Assembly: GCA_963666975.2 (NCBI GenBank)
Contig: CAXVYR010000004.1
Location: forward strand, 1,728,001-1,792,000
Direction of reading: 5' to 3'
DNA from: Terriglobia bacterium
GTDB lineage: Bacteria > Acidobacteriota > Terriglobia > 2-12-FULL-54-10
Length of the DNA: 64,000 nucleotides
The notes under the pieces are model-generated. The model did no database searches. It saw only the letters and a list, made by a program, of their open reading frames with translations, and was not told the DNA's origin. Of this stretch, positions 11,424 through 16,959 are shown piece by piece; the first letter of the stretch is position 1; every line of letters starts with the position of its first letter. The translations under genes and the position numbers were made by a program.

Positions 11424-12035
11424 TCAATTTTGCCAGCCGATTTCCCGCGCGCGCAGCTCCTCTTCCAGTTGGGACAGGGAATGGAACTGAACTGAGTCAA
11501 TGCCCTGGCGGCGGGCTGCCTCCACGTTGGAGGCGATGTCATCGGTGAAAAAACATTCTTCCGGGCGGCAACCGGCGCAGCGAATCGCCTCCTGGTAAAT
11601 TTCCGGAGAGGGCTTCAACGCGCCGACCTCGTAGGAGAGAACATAGCCGTCAAAGTGTCCGAGGAGGGGATACTTTTCCCGGGCCATGGCAAAGTGAATG
11701 GTGTTGGTGTTGGACAAAAGAAGCAAACGATGACGGCTGCGGATACCCAGCAACAAGCTCTCCGGGATCAGCGTCTCCGGCAGAAAGATGGTGCTCCAAA
11801 GCTCCCAGAACTCGGAATAGCTGACATCGAGATCAAGGATGCGGCTAACCTGCTCGACAAAACTTTCGGGAGAGACCTGGCCCGTCTCAAAAAGTTGCAC
11901 CAGCCCGGTCGAGCGGATGCGCGCGGGGATTTCCTGCGCCGGGTAGGGACACAACTTCTCCAAAGCCGAGTGGCATTGGCTGAAATCAATCGGCACAATC
12001 ACGTTGCCCAGATCGAGCATCACGGTTTTGGTCAT
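11424..12035 (-). CDS. HAD-family phosphatase (YihX-like)
   Basis: DLGNV, LSNTN, KPSPEIY and FFTDD motifs. Confidence 0.92.
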   Translation of the reverse strand: MTKTVMLDLGNVIVPIDFSQCHSALEKLCPYPAQEIPARIRSTGLVQLFETGQVSPESFVEQVSRILDLDVSYSEFWELWSTIFLPETLIPESLLLGIRSRHRLLLLSNTNTIHFAMAREKYPLLGHFDGYVLSYEVGALKPSPEIYQEAIRCAGCRPEECFFTDDIASNVEAARRQGIDSVQFHSLSQLEEELRAREIGWQN

Positions 12036-12061
12036 TCGAAGTGGTGGCCGGTCCCTTTACA

Positions 12062-12146
12062 ATAAAAGAAGCCCCACAACCGACAAAATCGGCGGAGGCT
12101 TCAAGGTTTACCCCGGTTAAGGGGCTATCCTGCGAAACCTTGTTAT
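12062..12146 (-). ncRNA. tracrRNA-3'-like hairpins and intrinsic terminator directly after CRISPR-like repeat 1
   Basis: ATAACAAGGTTT..CCCC-TTAACC-GGGG..AAACCTTG, then GAAGCCTCCGCCGA..TCGGTTGTGGGGCTTC-TTTT. Confidence 0.45.
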
Positions 12147-12182
12147 ATTATAGCTGACCGATGCCTGCCCGCAATCCACAAC

Positions 12183-12655
12183 AATTTTTTGCTGCTAAAC
12201 TGTTTTAGATAATTCGCAAAGTCGGCATAATCCTTTTCAATCTTCGCCGTGTTTTCTGCGGTGTAAAAATCCGGATTTAGATAATTCTTAGTGTTGCAGT
12301 CGCCGAAAGAGGTCCAATCATAAGCGGTAATAAGCACGGTTGAAGACTGCGGGTCGCTTAAAAATTGTCTGAAGTCTGATCTTGCGGCAAGATTAGCTAA
12401 ACGAGAGTTCTGGATACAAGTACCATCTTTATAATCTATATCTGCCTTCGGCCCAATATAAATTCTTATCGCTCCCGCGCCTAAATCATTCGCAAGGTCC
12501 AAGCTTTTAGACATCAAGGCGTCGCCGCTATATCCAGAAACACTGCCGCCCCCAAAATACGGCCCGAACGCTGTTTGCGCCGAAACAACGGCCGGGACAA
12601 AAAAAACGGCGAAAAGCGCCAGCCCAAAAATCATCAATTTTTAATTTCTAAACAT
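12183..12655 (-). pseudogene. Foreign secreted protein, truncated exactly at repeat 1, nonsense at codon 5
   Basis: MFRN*KLMIFGLALFAVFFVPAVVSAQ..NYLKQFSSKK runs straight into the repeat; AT-rich. Confidence 0.75.
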
Positions 12656-12787
12656 ATTTGCAGCAAAACTATTCATTAATAATCGTAATAGCAAATTTAA
12701 TGTAAAAAAACACCCGGCCAAATTGGTCGGGTGGTGCCCAAAGAACTATTCCGTTGTTCCCAAGCTGATCGGAAGAGTTGAGGGTTA

Positions 12788-13801
12788 TTATTTTGGCGCC
12801 GCGCCATCAATAGATGATACGGTGAACCCCTCGTGGTTCAGATTCACGTGTAAAGCCACAAATCCTAGTTGAAGGCCGTTCACAGACTCCACTGTCATAA
12901 GCCCCGCAGAATCAAGAGGAAGGGCGATGCCGAAATCATCTAACATTCCCGTTTTCATGCTCCGCGGCGGAATAGATATGCTAAAAGAACCCGGCGGCAA
13001 AGACACGTTGACTTCATTCCACTGGTCTGTGGGGTTTGTAAATGCCAGGCCTATACCGGTCCGCTTCAACGGCGAACTCGTCAGATTGTCGTAATAGACA
13101 GAATATTTTCTCGGCAAGTCCTCGGCATCCCAAGAGCGGACAAAAGTCTCGCTAAGGACAACGCCATCTCTAACATAGCGGTACCTCAGAGACACGCCAA
13201 CATCCAAAACGCCGCCTGGAGGGATTCCATTGCCACCAGTGTTGGGATATATCAGCCTTAACCCAGCCGCCGAGTCCTTCCCTTGATGGGAAAGTCAGCG
13301 TTGTGGCAGTCCAGTGTTGGGATAAATATCAGCCTTAACCCAGCCGCCGAGTCCTTCCCTTGATGGGAAAGTCAGCGTTGTGGCAGCGGCTGTTTTTTGC
13401 AAAAGCGGGAGCGTAACACTGCCGATGATCGGCAAACCAGCATAGGTTCCAAACGAACCAAAACTATGGATTGGTTCAATCAGCCTGCTTCCGTCATCTC
13501 TCCAGAAAATAAACAGAAAACTGATGGTGAAATTAGATTTGTTCTCGAAAACCAAGTCAGTTTCCCAGCCGTTGCGCAAAACATACCTCTCGCCGCTGAC
13601 AAGATCATCTTTCCCCACGACAGCGCCGTCGCTTATTCTGATATACTCATCGCCGCCACCCAGAGCAAGATGCGGCATAACATACCTTGCGACCGGCGCT
13701 GAATTTCTATTTTGCTCATCCAACCTGGTAACCTGGGCAAAAGACCGGTTGCCCAGAAAAGAAAAAATCAATCCTACATAAATCAATCAGCGCCTTCTCA
13801 T
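12788..13801 (-). pseudogene. Foreign secreted protein, nonsense at codon 5 and split by a ~75-bp tandem duplication
   Basis: GGAGG-N6-ATG; MRRR*LIYVGLIFSF..PHLALGGG..GIGLAFTNP; duplication 13236-13309 / 13311-13386. Confidence 0.75.
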
Positions 13802-13879
13802 GCCACACCTCCATTCCCATTTTCAGAATATTATAGCTGATCGATGCCTGCCCGCAATCCACAACTCACGGCGGTCGCT

Positions 13880-14005
13880 TCACGAAAGATCAAACAGCAG
13901 AATCTCCGCCTCGCCGTTCCCGTCGTTTTCTTTGCCGACGCTCAGTTCCAGCAACTCTTCATTGCCGGCCTCTGCGCTGACTGCGGCCCCGTCGCCCGCC
14001 TGGAG
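13880..14005 (-). pseudogene. Diverged duplicate of the pirin 3' end
   Basis: LQAGDGAAVSAEAGNEELLELSV..NGEAEILLFDLS* versus LQAGDGAAVSAKRNEDEMLELSA..NGEAEILLFDLS* of the full gene. Confidence 0.9.
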
Positions 14006-14024
14006 CCCCACAGAAGCGCGGGGT

Positions 14025-14321
14025 TTAGGCCGTCGGTTGAGGCTCGTAGCGCTCGACCTGGATTTGATCCTGGTGCTTGCGCGCTTGGGCCAACTCGTAG
14101 GCTGTTTGCAAGCGGAGCCAATGATCGGCGTTGGACCATCCGGCCTTCTCCAGGCGGATTGCCATGTCCGGAGAGATTCCGGACTGGCCGTTGATCACGC
14201 GCGAAAGCGTATGGCGGGTAACGCGCAAGACCTTCGCGCCTTCGGTCACGCTGAGTTCGAGCGGCTCCAAGCAGGCATCCTTGATCGAACGGCCCGGATG
14301 TGGCGGGTTTTTCATGGGCAT
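14025..14321 (-). CDS. higA: HigA-family antitoxin
   Basis: [27 protein letters not shown]. Confidence 0.93.
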
Positions 14322-14339
14322 AGCGGTTGCTCCTTTTTG

Positions 14340-14618
14340 TTAGTGATAGTCGACGAGGTCGACCTCATAAGCATCCCCGTCCTCAAAGCGAAAAGTGATG
14401 CGCCAATTCCGGGAGATCGTCACGCTCCAGTGGCCCTTCCGGTCGCCCTTGAGCGGGTGGAGACGATAACCCGGTAAATCGAGATCTCCAGGGTCTTGTG
14501 CTTTGTCCAGATGGAACAGCACGTCGCGGATGCGGTCGAGATGGTCGGCGCGGATTTTGCTGCCGTCACTTTGCTCATAAAGCCGCTTCAGGCCCCGGTG
14601 TCGAAAACTCTCGATCAT
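14340..14618 (-). CDS. higB: HigB/RelE-family toxin
   Basis: MIESFRHRGLKRLY..RLHPLKGDRKGHWSVTISRNWRITF..DYH. Confidence 0.93.
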   Translation of the reverse strand: MIESFRHRGLKRLYEQSDGSKIRADHLDRIRDVLFHLDKAQDPGDLDLPGYRLHPLKGDRKGHWSVTISRNWRITFRFEDGDAYEVDLVDYH

Positions 14619-14624
14619 AGAAAA

Positions 14625-14643
14625 TGTAACATGCAATGTTGCA
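14625..14643 (-). promoter_or_regulatory. Palindromic operator over the higBA promoter
   Basis: TGTAACA-TGCAA-TGTTGCA immediately upstream of the higB ATG. Confidence 0.6.
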
Positions 14644-14792
14644 CGTCGCAACCGGAACGTATTCCTAGCCGGGGCCGCACGGTATTTGGCATCAGGAATT
14701 GCGCTTCATGAGATGAAGGAAACGTAACCGCGTAGCTCCATATTATAGCTGACCGATGCCTGCCCGGAATCCACAACGCGGTAGCAACGAAA

Positions 14793-15539
14793 TCACGAAA
14801 GATCAAACAGCAGGATTTCCGCCTCGCCGTTCTGCTCGGCTTCATTCCCGGCGCTCAACTCCAGCATCTCGTCTTCATTCCTCTTGGCGCTGACTGCGGC
14901 CCCATCGCCCGCCTGAAGTGAATATCCGTTCAGGACAACCGCGCCCCTCGCCGTCTGCACCCAGGCGTGGCGGCCGGGCCGCAGACGATGCGTCACGCGC
15001 TGTCCGGCACTCAGGCGGGCCACGTATAAATCCGCATCCTGATGGAGGGTGACCACACCATCTCGCCCTGCTTTATTCCCATCCTCATCCCCCGCCGCCA
15101 GAAGAAGCAAAGCTCCCCGTGCTTGCTCCATCGGGAAGGCGCGCTGCTCGTAGCTGGGCTGGATGCCTTGCGTTCGCGGCAAAATCCATACTTGGAAAAG
15201 GTGTACCTGCTCGGATGGGGAGTGGTTGTGCTCGCTGTGGGTCACGCCGGTGCCGGCGCTCATGCGCTGCACCTCTCCCGGACGAATCACCGATCCGTTG
15301 CCCATGCTGTCCTTGTGATCGAGCGAGCCTTCCAGGACGTAGGTAACGATCTCCATGTCCCGGTGCGGATGGGCGCCGAAGCCCTGCCCCGGCGCAATGA
15401 AGTCTTCATTCAGCACCCGCAGATGGCGAAAGCCCATGAAATTCGGATCATAGTAGTGATCGAAGGAAAAACTGTGGCGGCTGTCGAGCCGGCCTAGCCG
15501 CGTATGCCCGCGCTCACTGCCCGGTCGCAACCGAATCAT
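14793..15539 (-). CDS. Pirin-family protein (YhhW-like)
   Basis: HSFSF, GFGAHPHRDMEIVTY and MSAGTGVTHSE motifs. Confidence 0.95.
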   Translation of the reverse strand: MIRLRPGSERGHTRLGRLDSRHSFSFDHYYDPNFMGFRHLRVLNEDFIAPGQGFGAHPHRDMEIVTYVLEGSLDHKDSMGNGSVIRPGEVQRMSAGTGVTHSEHNHSPSEQVHLFQVWILPRTQGIQPSYEQRAFPMEQARGALLLLAAGDEDGNKAGRDGVVTLHQDADLYVARLSAGQRVTHRLRPGRHAWVQTARGAVVLNGYSLQAGDGAAVSAKRNEDEMLELSAGNEAEQNGEAEILLFDLS

Positions 15540-15711
15540 TGCTGCCCCCTCCCTTGCTTTTTAAGGTTAACACAGAGGAATGGTTCAGACGGGACAAGGC
15601 CTGGCACCGTTGCCGCAACAAGAACGCTTGTCCCCGGAAACAGCGGAGGCTTATAATTCTTCTTTGTTGCGACATTGGAATCTCACGTTGTCCTTCCCCG
15701 AAACAATCCGA

Positions 15712-16734
15712 ATGAGCCGGACCGCACGCCTCAGCGCAGGCAGTTTGCTGATGATCCTTTCCTTGTCGTTGTCCTTGCTCTACGGTCTCGCCCGTGCGCA
15801 GGCGCCGGCGGACACCCTCTCAGGCCGCGTGCTCAACGGCACCACGAACCAGCCCGTCCCGAATCAGCCGGTGGCTTATGTCAGGATGCAACAAGGGCTG
15901 GAGCCGGTGGCGACGGCGGTGACCGGCGCGGACGGACGATTTGTTCTGGAAGGCGTTGGCACTCCCGGCGGAGCCCCCGCGCTGCTGCGGGCCGAATACC
16001 AGGGCGTGACCTATTCCCATCCCGTGCTGGGGCAACAACCCGGCGGCGTCCAGATCCAGGTGTTTGAAGCCGCCAGCCAGCCGGAGATGGTTTCGGCGAA
16101 AGAACACCTCATCTTCCTCCACCCTGCAGGAGACACTATTTTCGTAACCGAGCAAGTGGTGCTGGAGAACGCCACCGCCCCGCCCAAAACATATTTCAAT
16201 CCGGAAGGGACCTATCGGTTTGCCGTGCCGGAGACGCCGCGCGCGGAAGTTCGTCTTTCGGTGACCGGCCCGGGAGGCATGCCCATCCAGCAGACGCCGG
16301 AGCCCGGAGAGCTGGAAAACCATTTTGCCATTGCCTATCCGATCCGTCCCGGCGAGACGCAGGTGCGGATTGACTATTCTTTCGGCTACCAGTCGCCCTT
16401 CGATTTCACCAAACTGCTGCTGCTGCCGTCCGACCAAACATATGTGATATCGCCCGGGACAGACGTACAATTGTCCGGGGAAGGAGTGGCCGAGTTGGGC
16501 GCCGATCCCTCAACGGGATTTATCGGGTATCAAGTGACTCCCCGGGAAAATCTCATTCGCGTCCAGGTCTCCGGCCAGGCTCCCGCGACGCTCGCGGGAG
16601 CGGGAGGGGCTCAGGACGAGGGATCAGGGCTGCTTACGCCGATCCCGGCTCCGTTGAACAATCGCCGCTGGCTGATCCTGGGTTTGGCGGGATTGGTCAT
16701 GCTTCTCGGTTTTTTTTATCACTACACCCATTAG
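15712..16734 (+). CDS. Membrane-anchored protein with a carboxypeptidase-regulatory-like domain, upstream of ccm genes
   Basis: Signal peptide, LSGRVLNGTT..TGADGRF, C-terminal TM helix. Confidence 0.75.
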   Translation: MSRTARLSAGSLLMILSLSLSLLYGLARAQAPADTLSGRVLNGTTNQPVPNQPVAYVRMQQGLEPVATAVTGADGRFVLEGVGTPGGAPALLRAEYQGVTYSHPVLGQQPGGVQIQVFEAASQPEMVSAKEHLIFLHPAGDTIFVTEQVVLENATAPPKTYFNPEGTYRFAVPETPRAEVRLSVTGPGGMPIQQTPEPGELENHFAIAYPIRPGETQVRIDYSFGYQSPFDFTKLLLLPSDQTYVISPGTDVQLSGEGVAELGADPSTGFIGYQVTPRENLIRVQVSGQAPATLAGAGGAQDEGSGLLTPIPAPLNNRRWLILGLAGLVMLLGFFYHYTH

Positions 16735-16959
16735 AGCATTTTTCAAATTGGTGTATAGAGGGAAACTGAGATCTGCGTCAGGGCACGGTTTTAACCGTGC
16801 CGAAAAAAGCAGGGGGGGCAGAGCGGCTTTAGCCGCTGAGGTTCATATGTTTCTATCGGGTCCCGTCAGGGGTTAAACCCCCTAATGGCTGGCCTCGTTG
16901 CGGCACGACTGAAGTCGTGCCCTGACGAACCCCTATACATCAATCCGTAAAATGCTGTA
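16732..16959. mobile_element. MITE with IS630-type ends carrying a REP doublet (GGCACG family)
   Basis: TAGAGCATTTTTCAAATTGGTGTATA ... TATACATCAATCCGTAAAATGCTGTA; interior palindromes GGCACGGTTTTAACCGTGCC and GGCACGACTGAAGTCGTGCC. Confidence 0.8.

Follow-up and report, generated by a model that had tools for sequence, protein, structure and literature searches.

Kilobase-sized inserts between the repeats of a probable relic type II-C CRISPR locus in a Terriglobia bacterium

The window analysed here is a 64,000-nt stretch of the genome of a Terriglobia bacterium (assembly GCA_963666975.2, contig CAXVYR010000004.1), and the element in question is a set of three direct repeats, R1 to R3, which enclose two gene-sized inserts between a HAD-family hydrolase gene and a pirin gene. 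Judged by the family of the repeat, by the synteny of the locus and by the remnant of a trans-activating CRISPR RNA (tracrRNA) gene beside it, the locus is almost certainly a relic of a type II-C system of CRISPR (short palindromic repeats that are clustered and regularly interspaced) and Cas proteins. Its intervals contain foreign DNA of kilobase size in place of ordinary spacers, and this DNA came in by two routes or more. Taken as one statement, decay of a type II-C locus together with capture of a long fragment by Cas1-Cas2 is a tentative account, to which we give somewhat less than an even chance.

Repeats and inserts between HAD and pirin

On the plus strand the order is HAD, 109 nt of intergenic DNA, R1, the insert S1, R2, a 147-nt stretch resembling the 3' end of pirin, higA, higB, R3 and pirin. 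The features are as follows, all on the minus strand apart from a tandem duplication, for which no strand is given.

11424-12035, minus: HAD-family hydrolase gene (Pfam Hydrolase/HAD_2), the conserved left flank
12045-12144, minus: putative remnant of a tracrRNA gene (tail, stem-loops, terminator), core at 12098-12137, anti-repeat missing
12145-12182, minus: R1, with 36 nt at 12147-12182 plus AT at 12145-12146; in the cas-proximal position, abutting the tracrRNA tail
12183-13827, minus: insert S1, foreign DNA of 1645 nt, AT-richer, single copy in the genome
12183-12637, minus: 5' part, 151 codons long, of a gene that encodes a large secreted protein, truncated at the border with R1
12788-13801, minus: gene A, for a secreted protein with no Pfam family, split into the reading frames 12788-13207 and 13295-13786
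13236-13386, no strand: tandem duplication of 75-77 nt, found by repeat search, which breaks gene A
13828-13865, minus: R2, repeat plus AT; the presumed ancestral pirin-side ('extra', oldest-end) repeat
13866-14012, minus: displaced original pirin 3' end (linker and last ~130 nt of coding sequence), assigned by identity to a sister genome
14025-14321, minus: higA-like antitoxin gene with a helix-turn-helix domain (Pfam HTH_3, PF01381, 28.6 bits, cut-off 23)
14340-14651, minus: higB-like toxin gene of the RelE family (HigB-like_toxin, PF05015, 65.7 bits, cut-off 27)
14740-14777, minus: R3, repeat plus AT, 15 nt from the pirin stop codon
14793-15539, minus: pirin gene (Pfam Pirin/Pirin_C_2), its last ~170 nt (14793-14967) xenologous, the rest orthologous to the sister genome

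Repeat and pattern searches returned a 38-nt unit at the three positions listed, with one base different between R1 and R2 and one between R1 and R3. The canonical repeat is 36 nt long (12147-12182, 13830-13865 and 14742-14777), and the extra AT lies on its left side on the plus strand in all three copies. An earlier note, made from the sequence alone, had described two near-identical 36-bp repeats bracketing an insert and had suggested that the unit might be 38 bp; both statements hold, and both of its repeats are real, but a third repeat and a second insert (13866-14739) matter for the interpretation. The 38-nt unit matched nowhere in 100 shuffles of the window, and the genome (4,234,367 bases) contains only these three copies. 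When the flanks were aligned, identity among the copies ended sharply at both borders of the 38 nt, the exception being a homologous stretch that follows both R2 and R3. The repeats start 1683 and 912 nt apart, and no regular spacers of ~30 nt were found at the locus. A 19-nt inverted pair at 12187-12205 and 12650-12668 was no better than seven other pairs in the 6-kb region and was treated as chance.

The insert S1 has a G+C content of 47.1%, compared with 57-58% for the contigs of the genome. Its three open reading frames (ORFs) gave no Pfam family, no transposase or integrase was found among them, and no inverted pair was listed at the ends of the insert; composition, Pfam and repeat searches therefore agree with the earlier description of AT-richer DNA devoid of transposase, integrase and terminal inverted repeats. 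At the R1 border the insert stops inside a gene. The printed ORF (12143-12637, minus strand) continues into R1 as far as 12143. At E ≤ 0.001 it has 78 homologues, most of them 450-1200 aa in length, which always align over query residues ~17-153. The homology stops at query residue 149-154; residue 151 is the last whose codon lies entirely in S1, and codon 152 still agrees with the homologue at its first two bases, which places the cut within 0-2 nt of the R1 border. That the insert ends in mid-gene, flush with the first repeat, had been proposed before, and it is borne out by homologues that align with the N-terminal ~150 residues only. A Por_Secre_tail domain stands at the end of two of the four homologues scanned, a domain which we take to point to Bacteroidota and their kin and which would fit the lower G+C content. 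The closest homologues are 57% identical for the truncated gene and 64% for gene A.

Gene A is the complete gene of S1 and is broken in the window assembly. S1 starts 28 nt upstream of its ATG, and about half of these 28 nt resembles a native ribosome-binding region. The ATG with a ribosome-binding site that had been noted at this distance from R2 is indeed present (13801), but it runs into an in-frame TGA after four codons, and the long ORF restarts at a TTG at 13786; the 64%-identical homologue has its start close to this position. Beyond the TGA (13787-13801) the frame goes on with sequence like that of a signal peptide. This early TGA, the only in-frame TGA seen in the reading frames inspected, may represent a nonsense mutation, reflect a true TTG start or be a vestige of a donor in which TGA is a sense codon. 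The relatives of gene A form one cluster of near-identical copies plus the 64% homologue, and in other assemblies the gene is intact (271-307 aa), on contigs of 0.9-4.5 Mb. A search for a donor, as proposed in the earlier note, came back empty: S1 (1645 nt) had no match in plasmid records, and neither gene A nor the truncated gene had relatives in viral contigs.

Because repeats are classic sites of misjoining, an assembly artefact in which the insert was wrongly joined at the repeats was considered; the fragmented state of the sister genome described below also speaks for it. It is contradicted by a 3391-nt contig, present in each of four public runs from four studies, that extends from HAD through R1, S1 and R2 into higA, as well as by the intact gene A on long contigs elsewhere and by the quality of the window genome (4 contigs, 98.9% completeness, 0.11% contamination). 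The bridging contigs show 0-3 differing letters per listed piece, and a separate contig covers R3 and pirin. Independent contigs of all four runs thus bridge both S1 junctions, for which the earlier note had asked for spanning reads; misassembly is close to refuted for the window genome, and a misjoin as the source of the structure is scarcely credible. Contigs with R1 joined to R2, or with R2 joined to R3, as excision would leave, were not reported in the four runs, but contigs drop rare variants and such an absence carries no weight. The bridging contigs of all four runs skip the tandem duplication in gene A; this may be a real strain difference, or the duplication may have been collapsed in these short-word contigs.

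The sister locus and the decay of the CRISPR-Cas system

Among 14 genomes of the family, including the window genome (G000), the repeat was found in one other, G009, a member of the same genus. This metagenome-assembled genome (MAG; 430 contigs, 83% complete) has the repeat twice, with a spacing of 815 nt, and likewise in the interval from HAD to pirin. The part of this interval before the first repeat, on the HAD side, holds genes for a full-length Cas9 of 1025 aa (TIGR01865, 715 bits), a type II Cas1 (TIGR03639, 273 bits) and Cas2 (73 bits), with the repeats directly after them, so that G009 has a cas9-cas1-cas2 operon without csn2 or cas4 next to its repeats. Upstream of cas9, on the opposite strand, a complement to 22 nt of the repeat (the anti-repeat) is followed by two stem-loops and a terminator (folding z = -5.0), a candidate tracrRNA. 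The only two repeats of G009 enclose an unrelated insert of 778 nt and no ordinary spacer; no second copy of this insert was found in G000, G009 or the third genome of the genus, G010, and the ORF fragment at its repeat border gave no homologue. The HAD flank of the window is 85-95% identical to that of G009 and G010, and in G010 HAD and a remnant of pirin lie 48 nt apart, with the repeat absent. The G009 pirin gene (L006 7776-8611) reads as two overlapping ORFs, owing to a frameshift or an assembly error, and that of G010 (L011) has lost ~500 nt internally; the pirin beside the array seems to be dispensable in the genus.

When public contigs were scanned with a 23-nt core of the repeat, 18 stretches were found, 12 of which bear arrays of 2-39 repeats with a period of 65-67 nt, the repeats differing from the present one at 2-5 of 36 positions. 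All 183 spacers of 11 of the 12 arrays (contigs not de-duplicated) measure 29-31 nt. The array-bearing MAGs are labelled Elusimicrobia, Nitrospinota, Gammaproteobacteria or simply 'bacterium', and the Cas proteins, where cas genes lie on the stretch, are only 40-46% (Cas9) and 45-54% (Cas1) identical to those of G009. The tracrRNA candidates of three cas9 loci with the same repeat share a motif after the anti-repeat. As a side observation, the repeat is identical at 31-34 of 36 positions across MAGs labelled as four phyla (L043, L047, L052 and others against L006), the pair of repeat and tracrRNA being far better conserved than the Cas9 and Cas1 proteins. The repeat folds at -0.7 to -1.4 kcal/mol, not below shuffles, and is thus unstructured, as type II repeats are; an unstructured repeat is expected where the repeat pairs with a tracrRNA.

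Within a sample of 401 genomes of the class, the repeat occurred more than once only in G000 and G009. The 13 other hits in the class are single sites with 2-3 mismatches, a reversed-pattern control gave single hits in five listed genomes, and no repeats were seen around the one such site inspected (L018). A Cas9 match at E ≤ 1e-30 was obtained in 12 of 401 sampled genomes of the phylum, the best being only 46% identical. The earlier note had proposed a type II-C repeat, to be given up if the repeat never occurred in arrays or near cas genes, and had suggested looking for cas9, cas1 and cas2 in the pirin-HAD interval of relatives; the repeat was found in both settings, and the three genes stand, with a tracrRNA candidate, at the same locus in G009. 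By this comparison R1 to R3 are to be regarded as genuine type II-C CRISPR repeats.

Three metagenome contigs (L035, L038 and L039) hold a solitary repeat with one mismatch and with TACAAT instead of TATAAT, adjoining transposase-like genes (IS3-like, judged by eye). In L038 a 12-nt remnant of the repeat lies ~20 nt ahead of the full copy, and L035 and L039 seem to be one sequence in opposite orientation, starting and ending with the same sequence.

The window genome itself gave no match with the G009 Cas9 protein as query, and its only Cas1 lies 382 kb from the locus and reaches 43 bits on the type II model (cut-off 120). Thus there is neither a Cas9 nor a type II Cas1, and no cas9-cas1-cas2 beside the repeats, which speaks against the earlier reading and implies that the repeats no longer serve immunity. 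This Cas1 (G000:C4:2110213-2111322, L034 1465-2574; 369 aa, 86.8 bits on the generic Cas1 model) has an N-terminal extension of ~140 aa and adjoins IS3/IS481-type transposase genes.

What survives beside R1 is a tracrRNA tail: the stretch 12098-12137 matches the tail of the G009 tracrRNA at nearly every base, and it also aligns with the tracrRNA candidates of the three cas9 loci with the same repeat, but no anti-repeat was found at the locus. Rfam contained no family for the repeat, for this tail or for the G009 tracrRNA candidate; three weak Rfam matches in G009 were at chance level and were disregarded. The start of R1 coincides with the end of the anti-repeat's last five bases. Anti-repeat and first repeat are inverted copies flanking the cas operon, and the deletion ends at both. 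Very probably a deletion of ~4.4 kb removed the anti-repeat of the tracrRNA together with cas9-cas1-cas2 and joined R1 to the tracrRNA tail. The ancestral state, kept in G009, would then have been HAD, tracrRNA, cas9-cas1-cas2, repeat, insert, repeat and pirin, with the array read on the minus strand, toward the cas genes. With Cas9 and the anti-repeat gone, the repeats cannot guide interference in the window genome. On the minus strand, 12045-12182 presents R1 in the sense of a CRISPR RNA fused to the tracrRNA tail, an order like that of an engineered single-guide RNA, in which no repeat:anti-repeat duplex is possible for lack of the anti-repeat.

The interval between R2 and R3 points to a different history. 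Its first part, 13866-14012, matches the 3' end of the G009 pirin at 120 of 126 coding positions (95.2%), compared with 100 of 126 (79.4%) for the present pirin 3' end of the same genome, which in turn is 81.7% identical to G009. In windows of 60 nt, the present pirin gene agrees with G009 at 44-52 positions up to 14919, at all 60 at 14968-15027, and at mostly 53-59 beyond 15027, except for an indel region at 15028-15112 (33 and 35 of 60). This pattern indicates that R2 and the pirin fragment next to it are the original end of the array. The interval most plausibly reflects recombination with a foreign haplotype rather than an in-place duplication of the repeat, which counts against part of the earlier reading. 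A block comprising the last ~170 nt of pirin, R3, higB and higA would have been contributed by a more distantly related haplotype of this locus, by one crossover inside pirin and one non-homologous joint at 14012/14013, 12 nt past the higA stop codon, and would have displaced the original pirin 3' end to 13866-14012. The source haplotype, on this evidence, also carried non-spacer DNA directly after its repeat, namely higBA. The two genes form a HigBA type II toxin-antitoxin pair, the toxin preceding the helix-turn-helix antitoxin by 18 nt on the same strand. All four runs contain many short contigs at 14040-14640, with 90-95% identity and high depth, which suggests that close relatives of the pair are abundant in the samples, and a copy of higBA 66% identical lies on contig C3 of the window genome.

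Origin of the insert S1

Type II-C arrays gain spacers at the last, cas-proximal repeat and have a promoter in each repeat, as stated in the portion of PMC12080349 drawn on here; likewise, the part of PMC5965381 consulted describes promoters within the repeats of the Neisseria meningitidis and Campylobacter jejuni arrays. With the uptake polarity given in that portion of PMC12080349, R1 would be the repeat of uptake, S1 the most recently added unit and R2, at the old end, the 'extra' repeat. On the simplest mechanism Cas1-Cas2, then still present, would have carried out a full-site integration of a long fragment left untrimmed, without shortening to 30 nt. Such an integration would duplicate the cas-proximal repeat, here over 38 nt including two bases on the leader side, and would join S1 exactly at the repeat border, cutting a gene mid-way. 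The AT in question is found at the leader side of 12 of 194 repeats in ordinary arrays, versus 3 of 3 at this locus, and a cut shifted two bases into the leader would produce it. Neither G000 nor G009 has any ordinary spacer. The flush R1 junction, the shared AT and the 778-nt insert of G009 led us to rank integration by Cas1-Cas2 first; among the single explanations, capture of a fragment left untrimmed suits S1 best, although we put it somewhat below even chances.

Several points weigh against this capture. No donor was found that could fix the contiguity of the fragment, a protospacer adjacent motif or the exact position of the other S1 end. Of the junctions examined, a single one could be demonstrated to be flush, and up to ~14 nt beside R2 could be left over from an older spacer. 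In the literature on adaptation and oversized spacers, no integration of kilobase DNA by Cas1-Cas2 in vivo was found, and we know of none; the Cas1 that accompanies the repeat in the loci with ordinary arrays yields spacers of 29-31 nt only. The neighbouring insert shows that plain recombination has remodelled the locus. The cut in mid-gene lacks confirmation in G009, where the ORF at the border has no homologue, and the sister case depends on an assembly in 430 contigs at 83% completeness. Moreover, if the AT derives from the joint with the tracrRNA, this would place the duplications after the loss of cas1-cas2.

The same junctions could have arisen without any integrase step if two neighbouring spacers matched sites ~1.6 kb apart on one foreign molecule and a double crossover between spacers and protospacers replaced the middle repeat. 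Spacer-target recombination was reportedly seen in staphylococci by Varble et al. in 2019, and such spacer-guided capture accounts both for junctions flush with the repeats and for arbitrary cuts inside genes, with no new enzyme activity required. It needs two crossovers on homologies of 30 nt, however, leaves the shared AT to chance (~0.06 squared, from the 12 of 194 above), and calls for the same rare event independently in G009, while in neither genome does an ordinary spacer survive. We consider it an unlikely origin, at about one chance in a handful.

An equally modest chance is given to illegitimate or homology-facilitated recombination into an old 30-nt spacer, one end of the insert having fallen on the repeat border by accident; what was left of that spacer would then be part of the ~28 nt at the R2 end. 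The neighbouring higBA insert arose in this way, the locus belongs to a population with several haplotypes, and a single flush junction, the number shown, would be expected by chance in ~3 of 30 cases. Against this stand the independent recurrence of inserts between intact repeats (S1, the G009 insert and the R3 side of higBA), the lack of any remaining ordinary spacer, the shared AT, which is left unexplained, and the resemblance of about half of the 28 nt beside R2 to the native ribosome-binding region and start of gene A.

A fourth possibility is that the repeat served as the attachment (att) site of an integrative element, a prophage or island using its own or a borrowed recombinase, that later decayed, with loss of the integrase and of the majority of its genes. 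Direct repeats do flank foreign DNA here, and their 38-nt identity resembles a core site. Varble et al. are said to have described in 2021 a streptococcal prophage whose integration site is a type II-A repeat. CRISPR repeats are also targeted by Tn7-like elements, according to the part of PMC11837452 drawn on here, and the solitary repeats beside IS3-like transposase genes in the three metagenome contigs point the same way. S1, by contrast, shows no integrase, transposase or other recombinase, no terminal inverted repeat and no match in plasmid records or viral contigs. Its end in mid-gene would require a later deletion with its endpoint precisely on the border of the repeat, and the missing half of the truncated gene is absent from the opposite end. 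An att site is accordingly improbable, and clearly more so than either form of recombination into spacers.

Returning to capture by Cas1-Cas2, a broader version can be formulated, in which the type II-C adaptation module (Cas1-Cas2) of this acidobacterial lineage, acquired horizontally, integrates untrimmed kilobase DNA at the repeat border with duplication of the repeat and so produces gene-bearing 'giant spacers' that are read from the -10 box of the repeat and whose last ~24 nt could act as a guide. Such a module would link CRISPR adaptation in nature to transposition of the casposon type and would be a naturally occurring platform for gene capture. We regard this extension as doubtful, with perhaps a minority chance of being correct.

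Promoter motifs, known systems and meaning

The 3' end of each repeat carries a perfect TATAAT, with TTGCGG (three of six positions of the -35 hexamer) 16 nt upstream, and a scan for promoter consensus did not call the repeats. The box of R3 is directed toward higBA, that of R2 toward gene A and that of R1 toward the tail of the tracrRNA with its terminator. In G009 the ORFs of the insert run antisense to the -10 box of the repeat. The earlier suggestion of an integron-like cassette expressed from the repeat is therefore given low weight, as gene A is broken in this assembly and the G009 insert ORFs lie on the other strand.

The repeats resemble those of the type II-C loci of N. meningitidis and C. 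jejuni in being 36 nt long, unstructured and terminated by a -10 box, and G009 further shares with these loci the cas9-cas1-cas2 operon, a tracrRNA with its anti-repeat and an array read toward the cas genes. Such loci have a period of ~66 nt, whereas the repeats here start 1683 and 912 nt apart without any ordinary spacer between them; the window locus also lacks both cas genes and anti-repeat. Orphan or degenerate arrays likewise consist of repeats without cognate cas genes and with traces of a deleted operon, but normally keep spacers of 30-40 nt, whereas every interval here is gene-sized.

Casposons, in which Cas1-solo integrases move kilobase elements and duplicate the target site, offer a further comparison: if Cas1-Cas2 made S1, the duplication of the repeat would match their target-site duplication. 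Apart from this flanking duplication the likeness ends, for S1 contains no Cas1 or casposase and no inverted pair at its termini, the target is a CRISPR repeat, and the duplication spans 36-38 nt. Integron cassettes are also promoterless gene fragments downstream of a repeated site, and toxin-antitoxin pairs, such as the one in the second interval, are common in chromosomal integrons. However, no integron integrase was found by Pfam among the 8 ORFs of 11424-16734, and the repeated site here is a CRISPR repeat without an attC-like hairpin. Homology-facilitated illegitimate recombination is known from work on natural transformation, and the higBA block, with one homologous crossover and one non-homologous joint, matches it; it differs in that the target 3' end was duplicated, not deleted, and the flush junction of S1 is not explained by it. 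Tn7-like elements, in the part of PMC11837452 drawn on, and the type II-A-repeat prophage similarly place kilobase DNA between the repeats of an array, but bring mobility genes and defined ends, whereas S1 has neither and ends in a gene. By these comparisons the locus is neither an integron nor a casposon nor a recognisable integrative element.

Orphan arrays and mobile elements inside arrays are already known. No description was found in the literature of kilobase inserts that lack mobility genes and lie flush with the repeat where a sister genome keeps the integrase. CRISPR integrases are thought to measure their substrates strictly, and spacer length is among the most constant features of arrays. 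Both the window locus and G009 hold only kilobase inserts between their repeats, and the cut in one insert falls exactly on a repeat border. Should the integrase be the origin, Cas1-Cas2 would be able to insert gene-sized cargo in vivo, which would bear on the emergence of CRISPR adaptation from casposon-like transposons and on Cas1-Cas2 as a tool for writing DNA. If the integrase is not responsible, the locus is still a well-documented example of the decay of a CRISPR-Cas system, recording a cas operon deleted between anti-repeat and first repeat, flanks that were swapped between haplotypes and a toxin-antitoxin pair lodged in the array.

Beyond pirin, the window holds short G+C-rich palindromes at 16774-16950, in a block absent from the same place in G009. 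The first 24-27 nt of this block recur at 100% identity (one at 96%) on ~23 contigs of G009 and on one contig of G010, and the block looks like a dispersed element of the repetitive extragenic palindromic (REP) kind.

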